From IMG/VR virus record IMGVR_UViG_2778261064_000002: 9,886 nucleotides of DNA; one strand, written 5' to 3'. Every line of letters starts with the position of its first letter. Positions within the stretch are counted from its first letter, which is position 1. The notes under the pieces are model-generated. The model searched no databases and was not told where the DNA came from. It saw only the letters and a program-made list of their open reading frames with translations. Below, piece by piece: positions 1 to 9,659 of this stretch. This DNA is from a virus. Lineage: Duplodnaviria; Heunggongvirae; Uroviricota; Caudoviricetes. The position numbers and the translations under genes are program-made.

Positions 1-34
1 GTCTCAACAACTGCATTGTGTGATCCTCTCACGT

Positions 35-68
35 TTATCGAATTCGATAATCAAATTCGATTATCGAA
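35..68. promoter_or_regulatory. Operator-like palindromes upstream of the HTH regulator gene: a perfect 16-bp palindrome TTATCGAATTCGATAA (35-50) and an odd-centred 13-bp palindrome TTCGATTATCGAA (56-68) sharing the half-site TTATCGAA
   Basis: Read directly from the sequence. Two adjacent dyad-symmetric sites with a shared half-site lie in an AT-rich leader about 115-150 bp upstream of the ATG at 184. Dyad sites like these are typical of dimeric HTH repressor operators. Which protein binds them is unknown. Confidence 0.4.
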
Positions 69-183
69 TGTGATAAAAGATATGCGATCAAAAGTACGCG
101 GTCAATAACTTTTTGCGTATTTTTAGTCGCGCAAGCACAAAAGTACGCACATGCTTGTAACCTGTTAATTTATATGGTGAATT

Positions 184-855
184 ATGGAAAAGAACGGAAA
201 TGCGCCAATTAACGATAAACGTACTTTTTCTTATGATGGAATAGTACGCTTTAACGAACGTCTGAGAATCGCCATGGGAGATATGAGTAATCACGCTCTT
301 GCACGGCAAAGCGGCTTATCCGAGGCATCTATAAGAAAGTATGTAAAAGGTGATAGCTATCCAACTATTGATAATGCAGCAAAAGTTGCTGATGCGTGTG
401 GAGTATCTCTTGCATGGCTGTTAACTGGTGAGGATTGCGGTACTGATGATAATCACAAACGACCAGGTGCGAACAAAAAGACGCAAAAGAAAGCGTTAAC
501 TGATGCGTACAATGATGCGCAGAACGGATTACAACTTATATTGGCTAATCTTCTACCTGAAGATGCTGAAATGTTATTCTCGACGCTATGCAAAGTAGGT
601 ATTAACGGTGTGTTGGCACGATTACACGCAACAGGCGACCATGTTTTAAGTGCTGACCCAGAAACGGTCATCCGAAGCCTGAACATCAGAGAATCGCTCA
701 AAGATGCCATTAGTGTGGCATTGGCTGGCAACGAAGAAACTGACAAAGAGATTTTGCAACGCGCCAAATCCTGTATCCGAGCAGGAACACCAGGTGATCG
801 CGTTCCCGTCACACCGGAGCAAAAAACTAAGCCTATAAACAAGAAATCAGCATAA
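184..855 (+). CDS. XRE-family helix-turn-helix transcriptional regulator (cI-like N-terminal DNA-binding domain, uncharacterised C-terminal domain), 223 aa
   Basis: ORF from the track with ATG at 184 and GGTGA 4 nt upstream. Residues about 20-80 (NHALARQSGLSEASIRKYVKG...AKVADACGVSLAWLLTGE) match the XRE/cI-type HTH followed by the characteristic VS..WLLTG motif. The C-terminal roughly 140 aa looks helical and lacks the S24 peptidase Ser/Lys hallmarks of LexA/cI autocleaving repressors. Confidence 0.8.
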   Translation: MEKNGNAPINDKRTFSYDGIVRFNERLRIAMGDMSNHALARQSGLSEASIRKYVKGDSYPTIDNAAKVADACGVSLAWLLTGEDCGTDDNHKRPGANKKTQKKALTDAYNDAQNGLQLILANLLPEDAEMLFSTLCKVGINGVLARLHATGDHVLSADPETVIRSLNIRESLKDAISVALAGNEETDKEILQRAKSCIRAGTPGDRVPVTPEQKTKPINKKSA

Positions 856-1157
856 GCGCCTCGTTTTGGCGGGGCGTGTGCTGTTAGCTAATCAGCAATA
901 ACCACAACAAAACCGAACACAACAGATGAGAACAACTTGAGGAAAACGGGCAAGGATAAAACACTTTTTAAAAGCATTTAAAACCCGTTAAGTTTGTAGC
1001 AGAACCAGATCAAAAGCGCCCAGAATAAAGCGTAAAAAAAGGCACTTTTGGTCATTTCTCACAAATCCGCCCAGAATCACACTGAATCACCACACCCCGC
1101 GCCACGCAAGGCTTGCAGGTTCTACCAGGCTGCACGAACTCCACCCAGAATTGATCG

Positions 1158-1700
1158 CTACCCCACAGTTGCTCCCACTTTTACACTGGCAGATGCCGGT
1201 GCCACCGTCAGCCCGGTAACGCTCACTGTTTCAGTGCCTTCCTCTGCCAGATACGGACGCCCCACACCGCTGATTTTCACAGTGCGGGTCATCACGTCTT
1301 TTGAGGCAATGGTTTTACCCAGTGAACTCAGCCAGCCACGGAAAACATCAACAGTACCGTTGGGATATTTGATACGAAACGCGCAGACTTCACCGGAGTC
1401 GAACAACTGAACCAGTTTTTTCTGCCCGCTGTCACCCGGACGCCAGGCCAGCGTCGCCGAAGTATCACCGACTGATTTCTGCCCCTGGGTTGTCGTTTTC
1501 CAGTCTGCATCTTCATCATCGAGATAAGTATCATCTTCTGCATCAGCGGTCATTTCGCCAGGTTGCAGATCCTTCACCATCGCAAGACGCAGCCAGTCAG
1601 TGTCTGACAAAGGGTTCGCAAATGCGTCGCCGTTGCCGGTATACATCCAGAACGTCGTCCCCGCACCTTTCGTCTTTGCCAGTGGATTTGGTGTGGTCAT
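1158..1700 (-). CDS. V: Major tail tube protein, lambda gpV homologue, C-terminally short (180 aa; lacks most of the Ig-like C-terminal domain)
   Basis: Translation from the ATG at 1698-1700 ([36 protein letters not shown]...YLDDEDADW...[12 protein letters not shown]...[12 protein letters not shown]...) aligns closely with lambda gpV as I recall it ([36 protein letters not shown]...). Strong RBS AAGGAGGTG upstream. The upstream in-frame extension of the track ORF to 1775 is rejected. The ORF stops at TAG 1158-1160 where lambda V continues. Confidence 0.9.
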
Positions 1701-2698: not shown

Positions 2699-2974
2699 TT
2701 ACTCAATAAAGATCATTGGCTTACCGTTAAAGCGTTCATGCCGTGTGACCGTCCATTGTTGTTCGTCATAAACAACGCGATCCCCGCGCCGTGGGCGATA
2801 TCCCGAAGAAAACACCACCAGAGAGACCGCAGGTCCGGACAGAGCATTCAGCTCTGCCAGTGTTTCTCCCAGGATCACAGTCATATCGACATCATTAATC
2901 GAGGCTGTCTTTCCCATCTTTCTGACCGTGATAGCATCCATACGCGCTGCCAGCCGGGAAAAGGGATCAGACAT
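2699..2974 (-). CDS. Head-tail joining protein, gpFII-like (91 aa)
   Basis: Small ORF directly between the head and tail genes. The N-terminal pattern MSDPFSRLAARMDAITVRKMGKTASI resembles lambda FII (MADFDNLFDAAIARADETIRGYMGTSATI) and it has an RGD-containing C-terminal region. Its start overlaps the stop of the upstream DUF2190-like gene by 8 nt. Confidence 0.7.
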   Translation of the reverse strand: MSDPFSRLAARMDAITVRKMGKTASINDVDMTVILGETLAELNALSGPAVSLVVFSSGYRPRRGDRVVYDEQQWTVTRHERFNGKPMIFIE

Positions 2975-3290
2975 TGAGTTTTACCGGCACTTCTTCTGCA
3001 CTGGTTCCAGCATCTGCCCAGACAACCCCGACCAGCGGATCAGAGCCGCTGTTAGTCAGCTGAACTTTTCCGGACTTCAGATAAACCTTCTTACCCGTTT
3101 TCATGTCATCCGTTTTCAGCTTAGGCAGCATAAACACACCTTCGGTCAGGCCGTCGCCTGTTTCACCCTGTGGAATATCGGTCAGCGTCACCGCAAAAAC
3201 ATCGCCCACCTGCACCAGATCTCCGCTGCTGATGGCTGCACTGGCAACAATCGCCACCGTTTTTCCTTCTTCTACAAAATTCTTTGCCAT
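2967..3290 (-). CDS. DUF2190-like small phage head protein (putative capsid decoration/cement protein), 107 aa from ATG at 3288-3290
   Basis: Begins MAKNFVEEGKTV...SGDLV.VG..F.V...DI..G..G....EGVF.LPK, the pattern I recall for DUF2190-family proteins encoded just after major capsid genes. GGAG RBS upstream. The track ORF start at 3335 is an upstream in-frame extension and is rejected. Confidence 0.7.
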   Translation of the reverse strand: MAKNFVEEGKTVAIVASAAISSGDLVQVGDVFAVTLTDIPQGETGDGLTEGVFMLPKLKTDDMKTGKKVYLKSGKVQLTNSGSDPLVGVVWADAGTSAEEVPVKLNV

Positions 3291-3333
3291 AACTGTCTCC
3301 GCACAGCCCCGTTCAGGGGCTGATTTCAGGTAC

Positions 3334-3353
3334 AAAAAAAGCCCTTACGGGCC
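3334..3353 (-). terminator. Candidate intrinsic terminator or mRNA 3' stabilising hairpin just downstream of the capsid gene (minus-strand GGCCCGTAAGGGC stem-loop followed by T7)
   Basis: Plus strand 3334-3353 is AAAAAAA followed by GCCCTTACGGGCC, so the minus-strand RNA forms a short GC stem (4-5 bp, 4-nt loop) followed by seven U. It lies 24 nt after the capsid stop. A second 7-bp hairpin (3304-3322, CAGCCCC-gttca-GGGGCTG) sits between it and the next RBS. The stem is short, so it is probably only a partial terminator. Confidence 0.45.
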
Positions 3354-3376: not shown

Positions 3377-5335
3377 TTACGCCGTACATTTCACCAGACC
3401 GCGGTGATCAACTGGCGCGACACCGGCGTCAATACGCACTTTCGTTGTCACGCCATCCACACTGAAGCCCTCCATCTGATCAATATATGGCGTATCCACA
3501 CCGTTGAGATAAGCCACTTCAATCGTATCGGAGCCTTTGGACGCAGCCAGGTAGAAAGTGGTCTGGCTGTTATCATCAAGACGAGGCTCTGCAATAACGG
3601 TCGCAAAATCTTTCACCGGGTTAATAATACCGGCGTTAATGTCAGCCCCCTTGACACTTGAGGAGCGAATGACCTGGTTAGCAACAGACTCCATCGCCGT
3701 CGGTACCAGTACGAACGCAGGACGAATATTCAGATGACGCTCCCCCTCTTTCTGAACACGCATCAACTGGCGGGCTTTATCCAGCGATGCCACGTCCATT
3801 GCAGCGCTCTCCAGTACGTTTGCATGTTTCGCTTTATCGAACAGACTTACATTATCTGTGGATATTTTCGGGTTAGACGTCAGAATGGCATAAACCAGAT
3901 CGGCAATAGTGGATTTCGCCGCACGACCCAGTTTCATCGGGACATCGGTCAGCATATTCAGATCATCATTGATAATGGCCTGACGGGTGATACTGAACAG
4001 CTCGCCATAGGTCGCCAGTGCAATAGTGGCCTGTTTATCTCCGGTGGTGACGTATTTATATTCCGCCCCTTCACGCACCTGACGCAGAGCACTGAAGCCC
4101 CCCATACCCACACGATGGGCAATTTTAAAATCAGACAACTGACCTTTCCGCGTCCACTGTTCATAGGTTTCAGGGGCATCTTCCCAGCCCTGCAGAATGG
4201 CTTTGTTCGCAACATCCAGCAGAATATTACCGAAGTCAGACGTACTGTGTGTGAACGCCGCACCGACCATCTGCATCGGGTTATAACTGGAAACCCCAAT
4301 CCCCCGTTCAGTCAGTGACATACGAGCATATTCACGCAGGGTCATCCCGTTGTAGACATTATCACGTTCGGTTTTTTCAAATCCGGCACGCGCCATCAGC
4401 GCCTGGCGGATCCCGTCCCCCACAAAATTACCGTTACCGGCATAAATATGAGCCGGGGTATTTTTATTGGATGGCGTGGACTCGCGCCCCATCTCGTTCA
4501 ACAGCTTTTCGCGGGCCTGCTCCAGCGAACATTCAGGATCGGCAAGACACTGAGCCTGCAGCGTCTGATAACGCCCGCCAAACATGGCAAACAAATCATT
4601 AATACCGTTTACACGCGCTTTTTGCTCTGCCAGTACCTGCGCACGGATACTGTTTTCATCCACCACGGGTGCTGCTGCCTGCACTGGCGTCCGGGAGGCT
4701 ACAGGTTCATTATCCTGTACGCGTGGAGCACTGTTGCGTGGCGGAGTAATCATGTTTCGAATGGATTCCGGCATCTTTTTAAATTCCTCTGTACGTTTTG
4801 ACTGAATACATGCCATTGCCTTAACGGCTGGCGTTACCTGATCAGCAAATCCATGTGCCAGACATTCGGCACCGGACATCCAGGTCTCATCCGCCAGCAT
4901 GGCAGCAATTTCATCGGTGGTTTTCCCGGTTTTCTGTGCATAAGCGGGTAACAGAACCGCCTCAACCTTATCGAGCAGGTCGGCATAGGTGCGCATGTCT
5001 TCCGCATCACCGCCCGTAAAGCCAAATGGTTTATGAATCATCATGAAGGTGTTTTCCGGCATAATGACCGGGTTTCCCACCATCGCAATGACCGACGCCA
5101 TTGACGCCGCCACACCGTCGACATAAACGGTAATGGACGCACCATGTGTTTTCAGCGCATTAAAAATGGCGATGCCTTCAAAGACATCGCCACCCGGTGA
5201 ATTAATATGGAGATTAATGTGGGTGATATCGCCCAGTGCATTCAGATCACTGATAAACTGCTTCGCTGTAACACCCCAGAAACCAATCTCGTCATAAATA
5301 TAAATATCCGCGTCACTCTGGTGACCAGCCTGCAT
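3377..5335 (-). CDS. Prohead protease (ClpP/S14-like), scaffold-like linker and HK97-fold major capsid protein fused in one ORF (652 aa from ATG at 5333-5335)
   Basis: The N-terminal roughly 200 aa carry ClpP-family hallmarks (INSPGGDVFEG, GVAASMASVIA with the catalytic Ser, MIHKP with the catalytic His; compare E. coli ClpP INSPGG / GQAASMG / MIHQP). The middle roughly 130 aa are Ala/Gln/Glu/Arg-rich and scaffold-like. The C-terminal roughly 320 aa look like a major capsid protein. The track ORF (739 aa) has an 87-codon upstream extension overlapping the portal gene; I take the ATG 13 nt after the portal stop. Confidence 0.88.
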   Translation of the reverse strand: MQAGHQSDADIYIYDEIGFWGVTAKQFISDLNALGDITHINLHINSPGGDVFEGIAIFNALKTHGASITVYVDGVAASMASVIAMVGNPVIMPENTFMMIHKPFGFTGGDAEDMRTYADLLDKVEAVLLPAYAQKTGKTTDEIAAMLADETWMSGAECLAHGFADQVTPAVKAMACIQSKRTEEFKKMPESIRNMITPPRNSAPRVQDNEPVASRTPVQAAAPVVDENSIRAQVLAEQKARVNGINDLFAMFGGRYQTLQAQCLADPECSLEQAREKLLNEMGRESTPSNKNTPAHIYAGNGNFVGDGIRQALMARAGFEKTERDNVYNGMTLREYARMSLTERGIGVSSYNPMQMVGAAFTHSTSDFGNILLDVANKAILQGWEDAPETYEQWTRKGQLSDFKIAHRVGMGGFSALRQVREGAEYKYVTTGDKQATIALATYGELFSITRQAIINDDLNMLTDVPMKLGRAAKSTIADLVYAILTSNPKISTDNVSLFDKAKHANVLESAAMDVASLDKARQLMRVQKEGERHLNIRPAFVLVPTAMESVANQVIRSSSVKGADINAGIINPVKDFATVIAEPRLDDNSQTTFYLAASKGSDTIEVAYLNGVDTPYIDQMEGFSVDGVTTKVRIDAGVAPVDHRGLVKCTA

Positions 5336-5348
5336 CCTGAACCAGGAA

Positions 5349-6857
5349 TTATTCTTCGGACTGGTCGTCGGTGTGCTGCGGCTCCTGTCGTTTCGTTGCG
5401 GCACTGCTGCCTCCTTTATCACTGGCCGGATCAGTATCAAATACCAGATCCAGCTTGCGGTTTTCATCAATTTCGGCCTTGCGCCGACGTTTGACATCAT
5501 CCGGATTACGACCACCAGCACGTACCCAGTCTGATTCTGTCGCCGCTCCACCACGAATCTGGATTTTCCAGGCCTCAGCCTCCTTAACAGGGTCAATCCA
5601 CGGCATCACTGGTCCGGAATACACCGCGGTATACAGTGAAGAACGGTCAAGATCGCGGGGTAGCCTGATAACACCGGATGCCACAGCCTGTTTCAGCCAG
5701 GCACGATACATCGGGCGGGTGACGGCACCAATAAACCAGTCCTGCAGGATCAGGTAGCCATCAGTAGACTCAACCAGTTCCTGACGCTGGGCGCTGTAAG
5801 TGCCGTTATAGTTGCGTGCCGTACTGGAAAAACTCAGACGACTGCCCGCCGCCACGGCACGCAACTGACCATTACGAAAAGTTTCAAGGTTAGGATTGGG
5901 ACGATCCGACTTCACCATTCCGATTTCTTCGCCGGGTTTCAGATCGTCGTAAATAATGCCTGGCTGAATGGTAAGCTCGCGTTCATTCTCCTTGCTGCCA
6001 TTACCATCCGGTTCATAGCTCTGCCCGTCGCCTTTGCGGATGTACATCCCCAGAGCAGCGGCGATCCTTGCTGCAGTCAGCTCAGAATCTTCATACTCTT
6101 TCAGGGCACTGAGGCGGATCAGCACACCGGACAACAAAGACGTCCCGCGCATCTGGTGCAGACGGCGAACAAATTTAAGATGCAGCATTCGCTCTGCATC
6201 CACTTCTTTGGTTTCCATCTGCCGCCCGGATACGGGACGGCTTTTATACACCAGATATTTTTCGGGACGCCCCCAGTCATCAACAAACACGCCCTGATTC
6301 AGCCTGTTGCTCTCATCACTGGTCATGGGAATAAAGTCCGGCTCGAGCGCCTCCAGCCAGAAATGAACACCGGCAGAAGGCGTCAGGCTGTTTATGCGCC
6401 CGGAAACCATCTGGGCAAACACCTCACCATCGCGCAGCCAGGTACGCAGCATCAGACGTTCCAGCATCGGACGGGTAAACTGCCCGGTGACTTCCGGACT
6501 GACAGACCATTCACTCCATCGGGTGCGTATCTCCGCTGCCAGATCACGGGCAATGGCCCCATTGCGTAATACCGGATGTGGCTCGACAATAATCCCGTTT
6601 TTCCCCACCACCCGTTCTTCCAGCTTGTCAAATACACCAATAACCAGATCGTGGTTGTTATCAAGGTAACGGGCCTGCTCACGTAACGACACGGCCCCGT
6701 ACTGGCTTAACTGGTCGGCAGTTCGGTTTTCCCGCCGGGCTTTGTGTGTCCGCGTCGTTTTTACGGCCTCATAAGCCTGGATCACCGCACGGGAACGCAG
6801 CCTTGCCGCTTTCCATCCTGGTGAAAAAACGCCAATCACATCATCAAGAATTGCCAT
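5349..6857 (-). CDS. Portal protein, lambda gpB family (502 aa from ATG at 6855-6857)
   Basis: Large ORF between the gpW-like and protease-capsid genes. The internal segment LRAVAAGSRLSFSSTARNYNGTYSAQRQ resembles lambda gpB LRYIAAGLGVSYEQLSRNYAQMSYSTARAS, and the C-terminus is acidic. The ATG start overlaps the W stop codon (TGATG). The track ORF begins at an upstream GTG (6929), which I reject. Confidence 0.88.
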   Translation of the reverse strand: MAILDDVIGVFSPGWKAARLRSRAVIQAYEAVKTTRTHKARRENRTADQLSQYGAVSLREQARYLDNNHDLVIGVFDKLEERVVGKNGIIVEPHPVLRNGAIARDLAAEIRTRWSEWSVSPEVTGQFTRPMLERLMLRTWLRDGEVFAQMVSGRINSLTPSAGVHFWLEALEPDFIPMTSDESNRLNQGVFVDDWGRPEKYLVYKSRPVSGRQMETKEVDAERMLHLKFVRRLHQMRGTSLLSGVLIRLSALKEYEDSELTAARIAAALGMYIRKGDGQSYEPDGNGSKENERELTIQPGIIYDDLKPGEEIGMVKSDRPNPNLETFRNGQLRAVAAGSRLSFSSTARNYNGTYSAQRQELVESTDGYLILQDWFIGAVTRPMYRAWLKQAVASGVIRLPRDLDRSSLYTAVYSGPVMPWIDPVKEAEAWKIQIRGGAATESDWVRAGGRNPDDVKRRRKAEIDENRKLDLVFDTDPASDKGGSSAATKRQEPQHTDDQSEE

Positions 6858-7075: not shown

Positions 7076-9168
7076 CCTCCGGAAGTCAGCCAGGGGTTAA
7101 CATCGTCAGTTACTGTTTTCTTCCGTTTTTGTTTTTTAACAGGCGTGGATACCGGTTCCGGTGAGGGTGACGGTTCGGTACTGTCCGGGACACACTCCAG
7201 CCAGGTTTCCCGGCTCGCCCACTCCGGTGCATCCGGCCAGCGGATCTTTTCGTATCCATGCAGAATGACCAGAGCCTCGGCATACACCATCAGGTCAAAA
7301 GCTTCGTTGGCACCGCGACCCGGCTTACTCCATTTCCCGTCACTGCTCCGCTCTTCATACGTCAGTTCGTCGTAAAACCAGCTCCCCAGCCAGTCAGGGA
7401 AATGCACATAGCCGGGACCTGGCGAGTCACGCCATAACGCGTTATTCACCCGGTCTTTCAGGGCATCCGTCTGAAGAAGCCAGAGCGGCACATCACCTGC
7501 GGCCTGCGCCCGTCGGCCCGTTCGTCCGGTGTTATCAGGGAATGTACGGGTGATCAGTTTTGCGCGCCGGATGCTGTCGCCCTTAAACAGGTAAATACGT
7601 TTACCAAGGCCATCACGACGGCAACGACGCCAGAATTTATAGGCATTATCAGTGACCCCGTCTTCACCGCCGGAGTCCACCGCCATTGCCATCAGTCGCA
7701 TTTGTTGAGAAGGATCGGAGGCCAGCGGCCAGCTTTTATGAAAAACATCCGTCAGCAGGACATCCCAGTCTTCCGGATAGCTGGCCGGATCAATTCGCTG
7801 GCTCTCCCCGTCGCTGTCACCGCGCAATGACTGCGTGATGTTGTAACGATCAATAATCCAGCGTTCACCACGGCTGCCATAGCCCGTTACCTGAACCACA
7901 AAACGGCGATGACGTCCCGCCTGCACATCCACTGTCGCCACAAGGAAATTAACGCCATCCGGCACACTGCGGGAAGGAACTGGCTCTGCCCGCTGCTCAA
8001 GCAGTTCACTTTTTCGTTGCTCCATGCTGGCGCGGGGAAGATAAGGTAATCCCCAGTCGGTATTGATAACCGTCTTGAGTGTTTCTTCACTTCCGGTTGT
8101 CTCGTATTCCTGTTCTGCAGTAAGCAGTTTGTAAACGAGTTGCGAGAGTGTCTGGTAAGCAGCTGCCGGACCCTCCATCCAGAATGACGCAATACGTGAA
8201 CGTCGGGGATCACCATAACGACTGCCATCCGCATTGATGGATTCACCATCCCGCAACCAGACCCCACGTCCGTTCAGCTCACGTTTTTGTTCAGGCATAA
8301 TCCGTCCTGAACAGGAAGGACACTGAATATAAGCCGCCTCACTTGCCAGCACGGGATCGGCAATATCACGGAAACCAGCAACCACATCGCCGCAGGGCTG
8401 AAAATACTCACCACAGTGTGGACAGGGCCAGTACCAGCGACGGCGATCGCCACGGTTATAGAGCGACAGTATCCCCGTGGTTGGCGGAGCCTCATGCGGT
8501 GAAGTCCGTCGCCATTTCACATCCTTCACATCCCTGCCGGGGGAACTCTCCACCAGCGTCATACCACTGGACATAAATGTGGTGGTACGTTTTGAGGCAA
8601 GAGAGAAGGCATCCCCCTCGCCATCAATATCTTCCGGAAAACGGTCATAATCCGTCAGCGCGACGCATTTATAATCTGATGAGGACATGATATTGACTGA
8701 TGGCCAGCCGATTTTCAGGTAGTTGCCAGCAAGGAATGTTCTGTCATAAACGTTGTTGTCATTTTTGTTCGGACTCAGGCGACTGACCACTTCCGGGCTG
8801 ACGCGAAACGTTCTGGCAAGTCGTTTTTTGGAGTGTTCGCGGGCTTTTTCCTCCGTCATCTGAATGATCAGCATATCCGCAGGATCGCAAATCACGTTGT
8901 AAATCACCCAGCCGTCAATCAGGCCGATAGTCTTGCCGGTTCGTGCCGGACCAACAAATATCACTGCGTCGTATTCACGCGAGGCCAGGCAGTTCATCGG
9001 CTCAATAACATACGGTGCGACCAGCGGATCCCACGGGACTGAGTTCCCGGCCCCCATGGGCACCTGCATATACTGAGCAACGGCATCAGCAACCCGCATT
9101 CGTCTCGGTGCGCGAAGGATATAACCTGAATCGGTTCGTGCTGCCTTTGCGGTTTCCTGATTCAGCAT
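7066..9168 (-). CDS. Terminase large subunit, gpA family (700 aa)
   Basis: Walker A-like motif VGPARTGKT near the N-terminus and a Cys/His cluster WPCPHCGEYF...CPSC comparable to the lambda gpA ACPHCGE region, with size and position matching. The start ATG overlaps the small terminase stop (TAATG), with GGAGG RBS. Confidence 0.93.
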   Translation of the reverse strand: MLNQETAKAARTDSGYILRAPRRMRVADAVAQYMQVPMGAGNSVPWDPLVAPYVIEPMNCLASREYDAVIFVGPARTGKTIGLIDGWVIYNVICDPADMLIIQMTEEKAREHSKKRLARTFRVSPEVVSRLSPNKNDNNVYDRTFLAGNYLKIGWPSVNIMSSSDYKCVALTDYDRFPEDIDGEGDAFSLASKRTTTFMSSGMTLVESSPGRDVKDVKWRRTSPHEAPPTTGILSLYNRGDRRRWYWPCPHCGEYFQPCGDVVAGFRDIADPVLASEAAYIQCPSCSGRIMPEQKRELNGRGVWLRDGESINADGSRYGDPRRSRIASFWMEGPAAAYQTLSQLVYKLLTAEQEYETTGSEETLKTVINTDWGLPYLPRASMEQRKSELLEQRAEPVPSRSVPDGVNFLVATVDVQAGRHRRFVVQVTGYGSRGERWIIDRYNITQSLRGDSDGESQRIDPASYPEDWDVLLTDVFHKSWPLASDPSQQMRLMAMAVDSGGEDGVTDNAYKFWRRCRRDGLGKRIYLFKGDSIRRAKLITRTFPDNTGRTGRRAQAAGDVPLWLLQTDALKDRVNNALWRDSPGPGYVHFPDWLGSWFYDELTYEERSSDGKWSKPGRGANEAFDLMVYAEALVILHGYEKIRWPDAPEWASRETWLECVPDSTEPSPSPEPVSTPVKKQKRKKTVTDDVNPWLTSGGWL

Positions 9169-9659
9169 TACTCCTCCTGCTGTAATTCCTCCTCATCATC
9201 CGCACCTGCTTCGGTCACCCGCAGGGCTATCTGATCGCGCAGATCATCAATAATGGACTGAACACGGCTCACAGCGGCAGGCTGCAGACCGCAGTCGCGT
9301 TCCAGAATATCCGGTAATGTCTCCAGCACCTGCACGACCGCTTTTGCCCAGATGGCAAACTCCCGTCTGACATCACTGGCCGGAATGAGTTGTGCTGTTT
9401 CCTGTTCGAACTTAAGACGCTCACGTTCAGACTGATACCAGGCTTTGCGCTCATGTGGATCCATTTCGCCCTCAGCAACCGGCGGTGGTAACCCCATAAA
9501 TTCAGTCAGAATATCGGTCAACCGGTATAGCTTGAGTTTGTCATGTCCACCAGCGGGACGAATGTTTTTCAGTCTTGCCACGACAGTCTGGCGGTGCAGA
9601 CCAGATAAAGCCGCCAGTTGATTAATATTCAGCACCAGGTTTTTCAACTCATGATCCAT
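9168..9659 (-). CDS. Terminase small subunit, Nu1-like (163 aa)
   Basis: First gene of the packaging operon, immediately upstream of and overlapping the large terminase gene. N-terminal HTH-like segment (LVLNINQLAALSGLHRQTVVARLKN) and acidic C-terminal tail (DDEEELQQEE), as in Nu1-type small terminases. Strong RBS GGAGGAAAT before the ATG. Confidence 0.8.
   Translation of the reverse strand: MDHELKNLVLNINQLAALSGLHRQTVVARLKNIRPAGGHDKLKLYRLTDILTEFMGLPPPVAEGEMDPHERKAWYQSERERLKFEQETAQLIPASDVRREFAIWAKAVVQVLETLPDILERDCGLQPAAVSRVQSIIDDLRDQIALRVTEAGADDEEELQQEE

Follow-up and report, generated by a model that had tools for sequence, protein, structure and literature searches.

The window analysed here (IMG/VR virus record IMGVR_UViG_2778261064_000002, Caudoviricetes; the whole stretch of DNA under study, 9,886 nucleotides (nt) in length) carries on its minus strand the head-building gene of a lambdoid prophage of Escherichia coli, of the mEp460/cdtI type. 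The gene joins a ClpP-like protease to a scaffold-like segment and a major capsid protein, and comparison of its relatives suggests that it is read from two starts, one of which would leave the protease out. We place the probability of this overall reading, namely a head gene that provides all three functions and is translated in two forms, at about 0.8. We further consider it likely, on comparative sequence grounds, that the "fusion" is in effect a nested gene pair, in which a short form would serve as the bulk building block of the shell and a subset of long forms would act as covalent carriers of the protease. The same arrangement appears in a sister family of fusions, and it would represent a general and apparently undescribed means of dosing and packaging a protease.

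The six-frame open reading frame (ORF) at this locus extends over positions 3377..5596 of the minus strand (739 residues from a TTG start), and the first ATG past the stop codon of the portal gene, ATG 5335, gives a product of 652 residues (3377..5335). An earlier note, made from the letters of the window, had described the latter as a single ORF with a ClpP-like N-terminus, a scaffold-like middle part and a capsid C-terminus, its strand being left unstated; motifs, Pfam matches and frame all agree with that description, and the scaffold-like character of the middle part is likewise supported. As claimed, the N-terminal third contains all three motifs, INSPGG, GVAASMAS and MIHKP. A search with domain hidden Markov models (HMMs), which the note had proposed as a check, identifies the Pfam families CLP_protease at residues 23-168 (E=4.4e-36) and Phage_capsid_4 at residues 354-649 (E=1.2e-54), so that the lack of a ClpP domain, which the note had named as fatal to its claim, is not observed. 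Structure prediction, also proposed there, recovers a ClpP fold and an HK97 fold for the two halves.

With the NCBIfam model NF045540 the protein scores 984.8 bits (cutoff 475, E=2.3e-296), residues 9-651 being aligned to positions 2-651 of the 652 in the profile, and its match to PHROG 133 spans the ORF from end to end. It possesses the features that characterize NF045540 proteins, i.e., a ClpP-like and a major capsid domain in one uninterrupted frame, encoded after the portal gene, and RefSeq uses the NCBIfam name for near-identical genes in E. coli chromosomes. The corresponding genes of mEp460, cdtI, Ayreon, Tritos and PhiR47_1 show no substantive difference in identity, in position after the portal gene or in architecture. 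The fusion gene is in itself already known, an ordinary member of a curated family. The head module is arranged in the order terS, terL, W-like adaptor, portal, fusion gene, decoration, connector, Z, U and V. The head module of the window contains no further gene for a protease, a scaffold or a capsid protein, that of mEp460 likewise has no second capsid gene, and the fusion gene therefore supplies all three functions; judging by sequence, its product would be the main shell protein of the virion.

The gene is 98-99.7% identical in DNA sequence to those of the isolated phages PhiR47_1, mEp460, cdtI, phi458, Ayreon, Tritos and HannyBb, and its near-identical copies thus include those of plaque-forming phages grown on E. 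coli K-12, C, MC1061 and ECOR13. A protein-level search revealed the full-length fusion in 77 of 50,697 phage records, and protein identity declines from ~76% for the Stx-converting phages to 63% for a Providencia phage and ~57% for the Pseudomonas phages MD8, F10 and JBD68. The values for Fels-1 (72%) and Gifsy-2 (70%), together with the dedicated NCBIfam model, confirm the belief stated in the earlier note that such fusions are annotated in Gifsy-like prophages. Of 5426 complete E. coli genomes, 1965 contain at least 80% of the gene. A comparison with 1.84 billion cluster representatives gave 6753 matches at E <=1e-30, and about 100 of the best 150 of these consist of a single whole-length alignment (36-60% identity). 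A scan of viral contigs with the window protein returned near-identical loci only.

This distribution bears on the possibility that the single frame is an artefact, in which a sequencing or assembly frameshift, or the loss of a stop codon in a decaying prophage, merged separate protease and capsid genes. Another part of the prophage is indeed damaged, gene V being interrupted by a Mu-like insertion (see below), and the protein databases hold chimeric entries which join the fusion protein to terminase, portal or tail proteins (P0005, P0033, P0061), probably as a result of assembly or gene-calling errors. Nevertheless, the same frame occurs in 16 near-identical isolated phages, in the 77 phage records in all and in the 1965 E. 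coli genomes, and the ~100 cluster representatives align from end to end. Since the frame has no internal stop and is maintained throughout these phage records and genomes, the ORF is due neither to chance nor to a sequencing frameshift. The splitting stop or frameshift for which the earlier note had allowed is absent, and the counts refute the artefact, which can be practically dismissed.

For the start of the long form, the outcome differs in part from the 652-residue extent given in the earlier note: the frame is upheld, but the start lies most likely 69 nt further upstream, at GTG 5404. The features concerned are the following.

3377..5404, minus strand: most likely the full coding sequence of the fusion, with 675 residues (73.6 kDa), a GTG start and the stop codon at 3377..3379.
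3377..5335, minus strand: 652-residue ORF from ATG 5335, the same 1959-nt coding sequence that is annotated in mEp460 and cdtI.
5410..5416, minus strand: Shine-Dalgarno sequence AAGGAGG for the long form, which precedes the GTG by 5 nt and lies inside the 3' end of the portal gene, with an equivalent in relatives.

The GTG codon (5402..5404) is preceded by a Shine-Dalgarno (SD) sequence in the arrangement AAGGAGG-N5-GTG, with a duplex energy of -11.6 kcal/mol, the best among the in-frame candidates, as opposed to almost no pairing (-2.2 kcal/mol) at ATG 5335, 23 codons downstream. A strong SD sequence and start codon at the same distance from the protease domain are found in CP-1639, mEp213 and a Klebsiella phage, and in a relative of 90% identity the position equivalent to GTG 5404 is occupied by an ATG. 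For comparison among more diverged sequences, DNA was collected from 77 relatives with 50-100% protein identity (from Enterobacterales, Pasteurellaceae, Pseudomonas, Vibrionaceae and Shewanella) and reduced to 57 representatives at <88% nucleotide identity, a scan of genome contigs supplying the diversity required. In most of these 57, a distance of 34-42 codons separates the start with the best SD sequence from the YDEIG motif downstream. The NCBI-named proteins have 675 residues, in agreement with the GTG start. From this start, the gene most likely extends over 3377..5404, and its first 56 nt are shared with the 3' end of the portal gene. The residue numbers below, including those of the protein anatomy, are those of the 675-residue protein.

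The evidence for a second start is concentrated at the boundary between protease and linker, where two further features are located.

4785..4789, minus strand: internal SD-like sequence GAGGA, which lies within codons Glu206-Glu207 and precedes the internal ATG by 10 nt.
4772..4774, minus strand: in-frame ATG codon of Met211, the proposed internal start of a 465-residue, 50.7-kDa linker-scaffold-capsid product.

The Met211 codon is ATG in all 77 loci and in 57/57 representatives. SD pairing of -5.5 kcal/mol or stronger accompanies it in 57/57, compared with 11.6% of in-frame positions, and this is the sole such place in the gene. Six alignment columns have a conserved start codon; a consistent SD sequence is present at Met211 alone, which is also the only conserved Met codon equipped with one. 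The SD-like motif is retained while the residues it encodes vary (EE, ED, QE, KD or GD). Codon 206 takes the form NAG in 55/55 representatives, whereas the 37 other columns of NAR codons (Glu/Gln/Lys) show NAG at frequencies of 0.02-0.75, and its codon entropy is the lowest among 344 conserved degenerate columns. When RNA folding was scanned in 50-nt stretches and the values were averaged across the representatives, the region around the internal start proved to be the least structured in the gene (mean z of +1.8), positions 207-216 being the top 10 of 661. Downstream of its protease domain, the gene thus exhibits the hallmark of nested protease/scaffold genes, an in-frame internal start codon with a ribosome-binding site of its own. 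Autoproteolytic maturation from one polypeptide, as envisaged in the earlier note, is on this comparative evidence probably half the story, the conserved internal ribosome-binding site and ATG pointing to a second, protease-free product.

Two alternatives were considered and rejected. As to SD-like sequences arising by chance, the other strong columns (47-50, 134-137, 411-412 and 449-451) correspond to Gly-Gly or Glu-Gly codons and are not accompanied by a conserved start codon. A -1 frameshift at the sequence TTT AAA AAG before Met211 would give a protease-only product of ~231 residues; the heptamer is not conserved, its place being taken by AAA AAA or GAA AAA in relatives.

A sister family of fusions provides an independent view of the same boundary. 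Proteins of the NCBIfam family NF045541, such as the Ralstonia YO023_3 ORF and gp8 of Stenotrophomonas phage S1, have a homologous linker-scaffold-capsid module and the same overall architecture, with an N-terminal protease that is unrelated to ClpP. The window protein scores 399.5 bits with this model, only its residues 200-649 being matched, and is not a member since the cutoff is 525. The loci of the sister family are as follows.

L172:2329-4422, L081:2502-4484 and L173-L252: sister-family fusion loci.

In both YO023_3 and S1, an SD-N6-ATG arrangement (GAGGAA and CAGGAG, respectively) is situated at the boundary between protease and linker. When 56 representatives taken from viral contigs (36-100% identity) are compared, 51 of them have ATG in the boundary column, and only one other column contains a start codon in 85% or more of the 56. 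The mean SD pairing at the boundary is the best in the gene (-6.1 kcal/mol versus a background of -2.4), and GGA occurs exactly 7 nt upstream of the ATG in 36 of the 51. The residues upstream of the boundary ATG are among the most variable in the protein, and a conserved nucleotide motif amid unconserved protein sequence has the character of a ribosome-binding site. The capsid module has consequently been met joined to two different proteases, one ClpP-like and one of the unrelated sister type. In a split relative, Vibrio phage K306, the protease gene ends at the equivalent of residue 222 and a separate capsid gene follows 28 nt later; this split marks the same module boundary.

These data have to be set against a strictly single product, in which only the full-length polypeptide would be made, every subunit would bring its own protease and scaffold, and autoproteolysis would proceed at a 1:1 ratio, the GAGGA and ATG having some other purpose, such as a translational pause between domains or a structurally required Met. 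One uninterrupted frame is, after all, conserved across thousands of sequences. Several further observations weigh against two starts. The internal SD sequence is only moderate, with -6.0 kcal/mol compared to -11.6 for the long-form start, and lies 10 nt from its ATG. A 1:1 ratio would fit sterically, as 415 N-terminal parts would fill ~24-40% of the cavity of a T=7 procapsid; being physically possible, it means that a short form is not strictly required. In remoter relatives (34-52% identity, compared at the protein level only) Met211 is replaced by Val, Ile, Ala or Pro; these clades conserve an F..hP motif around it, the other hydrophobic residues in the motif suggesting that the position has a structural role as well; ATG is maintained throughout the gammaproteobacterial clade. 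The product of codon probabilities, 10^-21.5, overstates the significance of the pattern as the representatives are phylogenetically related, and the column controls within the gene are for this reason the fairer measure. A search of the literature for expression, proteomic or N-terminal data, a cleavage site or the products of the fusion protein found none. Finally, this particular copy of the prophage may no longer yield virions.

On the other side, a pause or a structural Met fails to explain jointly the ATG in 57/57, the NAG constraint unique in the gene and the minimum of RNA structure, and the same SD-N7-ATG arrangement recurs in the family with the unrelated protease, where the residues upstream vary freely. 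We therefore regard the strictly single product as unlikely, if still worth serious attention, and two products as probable, a reading that is well supported by the sequence comparisons but unproven. None of the GenBank records of the gene annotates the internal start, and in the literature, of which our coverage is incomplete, we found no report of an internal start or a second product for either fusion family.

The anatomy of the protein was derived from an AlphaFold model based on an alignment of 85 fusion proteins (representatives of 50%-identity clusters, 34-52% identical), with a mean predicted local distance difference test (pLDDT) score of 88.6. This model superseded one built from 16 close relatives, which was unusable (pLDDT 34.7). 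Sequence and profile searches of the PDB gave no solved structure of the fusion, the matches being ClpP chains and, weakly, the Mu-gpT-type capsid protein of JBD30. The protein is divided as follows.

4820..5335, minus strand: ClpP-family serine protease domain, residues 24-195.
5102..5104, minus strand: codon of the predicted catalytic Ser101 (in GVAASMAS), which aligns with the ClpP active-site Ser and is invariant in 85/85 relatives.
5033..5035, minus strand: codon of the predicted catalytic His124 (in MIHKP), which aligns with the ClpP active-site His and is invariant in 85/85.
4886..4888, minus strand: codon of Glu173, which pairwise alignment to ClpP chains places opposite the Asp of the triad.
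4658..4819, minus strand: variable linker rich in Ala, Pro and Thr, residues 196-249, of which 225-246 are predicted to be disordered (pLDDT <50).
4484..4657, minus strand: helical scaffold-like (delta-domain-like) segment of three helices, residues 250-307.
4427..4483, minus strand: low-confidence connector and candidate zone of maturation cleavage, residues 308-326.
3380..4426, minus strand: HK97-fold major capsid domain, residues 327-675, ~38 kDa.

The N-terminal domain belongs to the ClpP family (Pfam PF00574, MEROPS S14), with a domain HMM score above the gathering threshold, a ClpP fold and the Ser and His residues; Gly71-Gly72 are also invariant in the 85 relatives. Its score with TIGR00493, the equivalog model of cellular ClpP, is 59.7 (cutoff 308.6), which is far too low for a cellular ClpP and marks the domain as a relative of that enzyme. 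It does not belong to peptidase family S49 either, the SppA model giving 22 bits against a cutoff of 155. The linker is poorly conserved, ranges from 9 to 64 residues among relatives and is a hotspot of insertions and deletions among close relatives. The scaffold helices (250-273, 280-288 and 294-307) are modelled with pLDDT values of 88-97, and the protease-scaffold protein families of PHROG align through the whole of segment 250-307. Between this segment and the capsid domain, two confidently folded parts, pLDDT falls to 54 at residues 311-320, and the model thus makes the connector 308-326 a candidate for maturation cleavage. The C-terminal domain scores above the threshold of the Phage_capsid_4 HMM and adopts the HK97 fold.

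It could be argued that the ClpP-like domain is a catalytically dead relic which serves only as internal scaffold mass, the capsid being matured by a host protease. In the third position of the triad, Glu replaces the canonical Asp, and maturation by a host protease is known for Staphylococcus phage 80alpha. In the 85 relatives, however, the Glu173 column comprises 75 Glu and 6 Asp residues (acidic in 81/85), with Asp172 as its neighbour in the window protein. Given the invariant Ser101 and His124 and this largely acidic third position, the conservation pattern indicates that the protease is very probably active, and a dead relic seems most improbable.

The following course of head assembly can be proposed. 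The frame encodes, in order, the ClpP-family protease, the flexible Ala/Pro-rich linker, the short helical delta-like scaffold and the HK97-fold capsid protein, and it would be read from two starts, as the comparison of relatives suggests. Initiation at GTG 5404 would give the 73.6-kDa long form with protease, scaffold and capsid domains, and initiation at ATG 4774, served by its own GAGGA, the 50.7-kDa scaffold-capsid short form devoid of protease, with the expected N-terminus (M)PESIRNMITPPR. If assembly follows the pattern established for lambda, HK97, Mu and P2, a procapsid would be built from the capsid domains on the portal, the N-terminal parts being enclosed within it. Some of the capsid subunits would bring the protease into the shell as an N-terminal passenger, its dose being set by the ratio of the two initiation events. 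The protease would then remove linker and scaffold, leaving a capsid protein of ~38-40 kDa, and the mature shell would expand upon DNA packaging and be stabilised by the decoration protein encoded downstream.

Parts of this scheme have counterparts in known systems. In HK97, the capsid protein gp5 carries its scaffold (delta domain) at the N-terminus, from which the prohead protease removes it; gp5 is organised like the proposed short form, with a linker, a helical scaffold and an HK97-fold domain. The HK97 protease gp4, in contrast, is encoded by a separate gene, has a different fold and is recruited non-covalently, whereas recruitment in the window phage would be by covalent fusion. Nested protease and scaffold genes are established in herpes simplex virus 1 (UL26/UL26.5).

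Nested genes of this kind are likewise established for lambda C and Nu3 (cited in PMC8508860). There, three products come from two genes and the capsid protein E is encoded separately, whereas in the window the capsid domain belongs to the same frame and the short form would consist of scaffold plus capsid. The proteases differ as well (S14, ClpP-type, in the window versus S49 for lambda gpC), as do the capsid proteins (Phage_capsid_4, Mu-gpT-like, versus the lambda E family). For the archaeal virus HFTV1, ribosome profiling has shown nested protease and scaffold genes at gp17 (bioRxiv 10.64898/2026.09.13.751334).

Among the fusions themselves, gp5 of Pseudomonas phage MD8 has been described as the source of protease, scaffold and capsid protein from a single gene, a second translation product not being considered in that study (PMC8508860). 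MD8 gp5, like its counterparts in F10, JBD68 and the vB_Pae_CF series, is 56-57% identical to the window protein over 97% of its length, in a different host. The Pseudomonas phage DNA included in our comparison was that of vB_Pae_CF140a (L082), a close relative in the MD8 group, and it contains the internal site in the form CAGGAG-N-ATG. Capsid protein and maturation protease are also encoded by a single gene in Arthrobacter phages of clusters AM, AU and AN and in Rhodococcus phage RRH1, an unusual but recurrent arrangement (PMC5513430); the sequences of these actinobacteriophage fusions are unrelated to the window gene. Encapsulins with cargo fused to the shell protein, such as the Pyrococcus furiosus virus-like particle (PDB 2e0z), resemble the proposed passenger, but they are not viruses and involve neither proteolytic maturation nor DNA packaging.

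The genes that flank the fusion gene, and a terminator-like structure behind it, are given below.

5349..6857, minus strand: portal gene of the lambda family (Pfam Phage_portal_2, 7e-82), the last 56 nt of which overlap the fusion gene.
3333..3353, minus strand: terminator-like GC-rich hairpin GGCCCGTAAGGGC followed by a T-run, 24 nt past the stop codon of the fusion gene, within the late operon and before the decoration gene.
2967..3290, minus strand: head decoration (cement) protein gene, 107 residues from ATG 3290 (Pfam Phage_cement_2, 1.6e-19; PHROG 122, 'head decoration').

The PHROG match of the portal ORF begins at its residue 24-25, and the mEp460 portal protein has 502 residues. The decoration gene is overcalled in the ORF list, where it starts at TTG 3335; GGAG-N6-ATG 3290 fits the 107-residue homologue in mEp460. 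Lambda D precedes E and is unrelated, whereas the decoration gene of the window follows the capsid gene. The records of mEp460 and mEp213 annotate a rho-independent terminator at the equivalent site, and the hairpin may raise the level of the capsid-gene transcript relative to those of the downstream genes, or may act as a stabiliser of the RNA 3' end. A second hairpin is present on the minus strand at ~3304..3322. The small terminase subunit (9168..9659, minus strand) is of the DUF1441/PHROG 141 type and not a homologue of lambda Nu1; the large terminase subunit, portal, Z, U and V are of the lambda family, and the module is in this respect a mosaic.

At the far end of the window, homology to phages ends at position 1168, inside tail-tube gene V, with the junction at 1167|1168. 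Positions 1..1167 match one end of a Mu-like transposable prophage with 100% identity. This element end also occurs in E. coli OkiPb01701, where it abuts a disrupted fliH gene, and the element there encodes a repressor-like helix-turn-helix (HTH) protein, followed by a ner-like HTH protein, a transposase of the Mu type and an AAA ATPase. Read on the minus strand, the element end is 5'-TGTGGGGTAGCG and, as in Mu, starts with 5'-TG. The inserted part of the window carries the following gene.

184..855, plus strand: HTH protein of 223 residues (HTH_3 and Phage_CI_repr; PHROG 3037, 'transcriptional repressor').

This protein belongs to the Mu-like element, not to the lambdoid prophage, and is presumably the c-type repressor of that element. 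The remaining gene V ORF (1158..1700, minus strand) retains ~177 of 247 codons before the cut and continues for 2 codons into the insert, and the junction 1167|1168 is absent from the complete E. coli genomes in the collection. With gene V cut, the lambdoid prophage is probably defective in its tail, the head gene being intact.

The naming of the fusion gene in sequence records is inconsistent: 'head-tail preconnector protein Nu3', 'protease C', 'scaffolding protein', 'protease/scaffold', 'major head protein', 'Clp protease ClpP' and 'terminase protein' are all in use, and the annotated length of the same gene is 652, 675 or 707 residues. In mEp460, no gene is annotated as major capsid protein. 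As a result of such inconsistent names and starts, phages such as mEp460 seem to be devoid of an annotated major capsid protein, which is misleading for automated comparisons.

The fusion alone is of little consequence, since it represents a curated family that is present in about one third of the complete E. coli genomes and in many isolated phages. A functional internal start, on the other hand, would explain how these phages avoid a forced 1:1 ratio of protease to capsid protein. If the two-start reading is true, it would describe a simple and recurrent way to load an enzyme into an HK97-fold shell, of relevance to the engineering of capsid and encapsulin containers, and it would extend the principle of lambda C and Nu3 to the capsid protein itself, which would be of moderate interest for the understanding of phage assembly.

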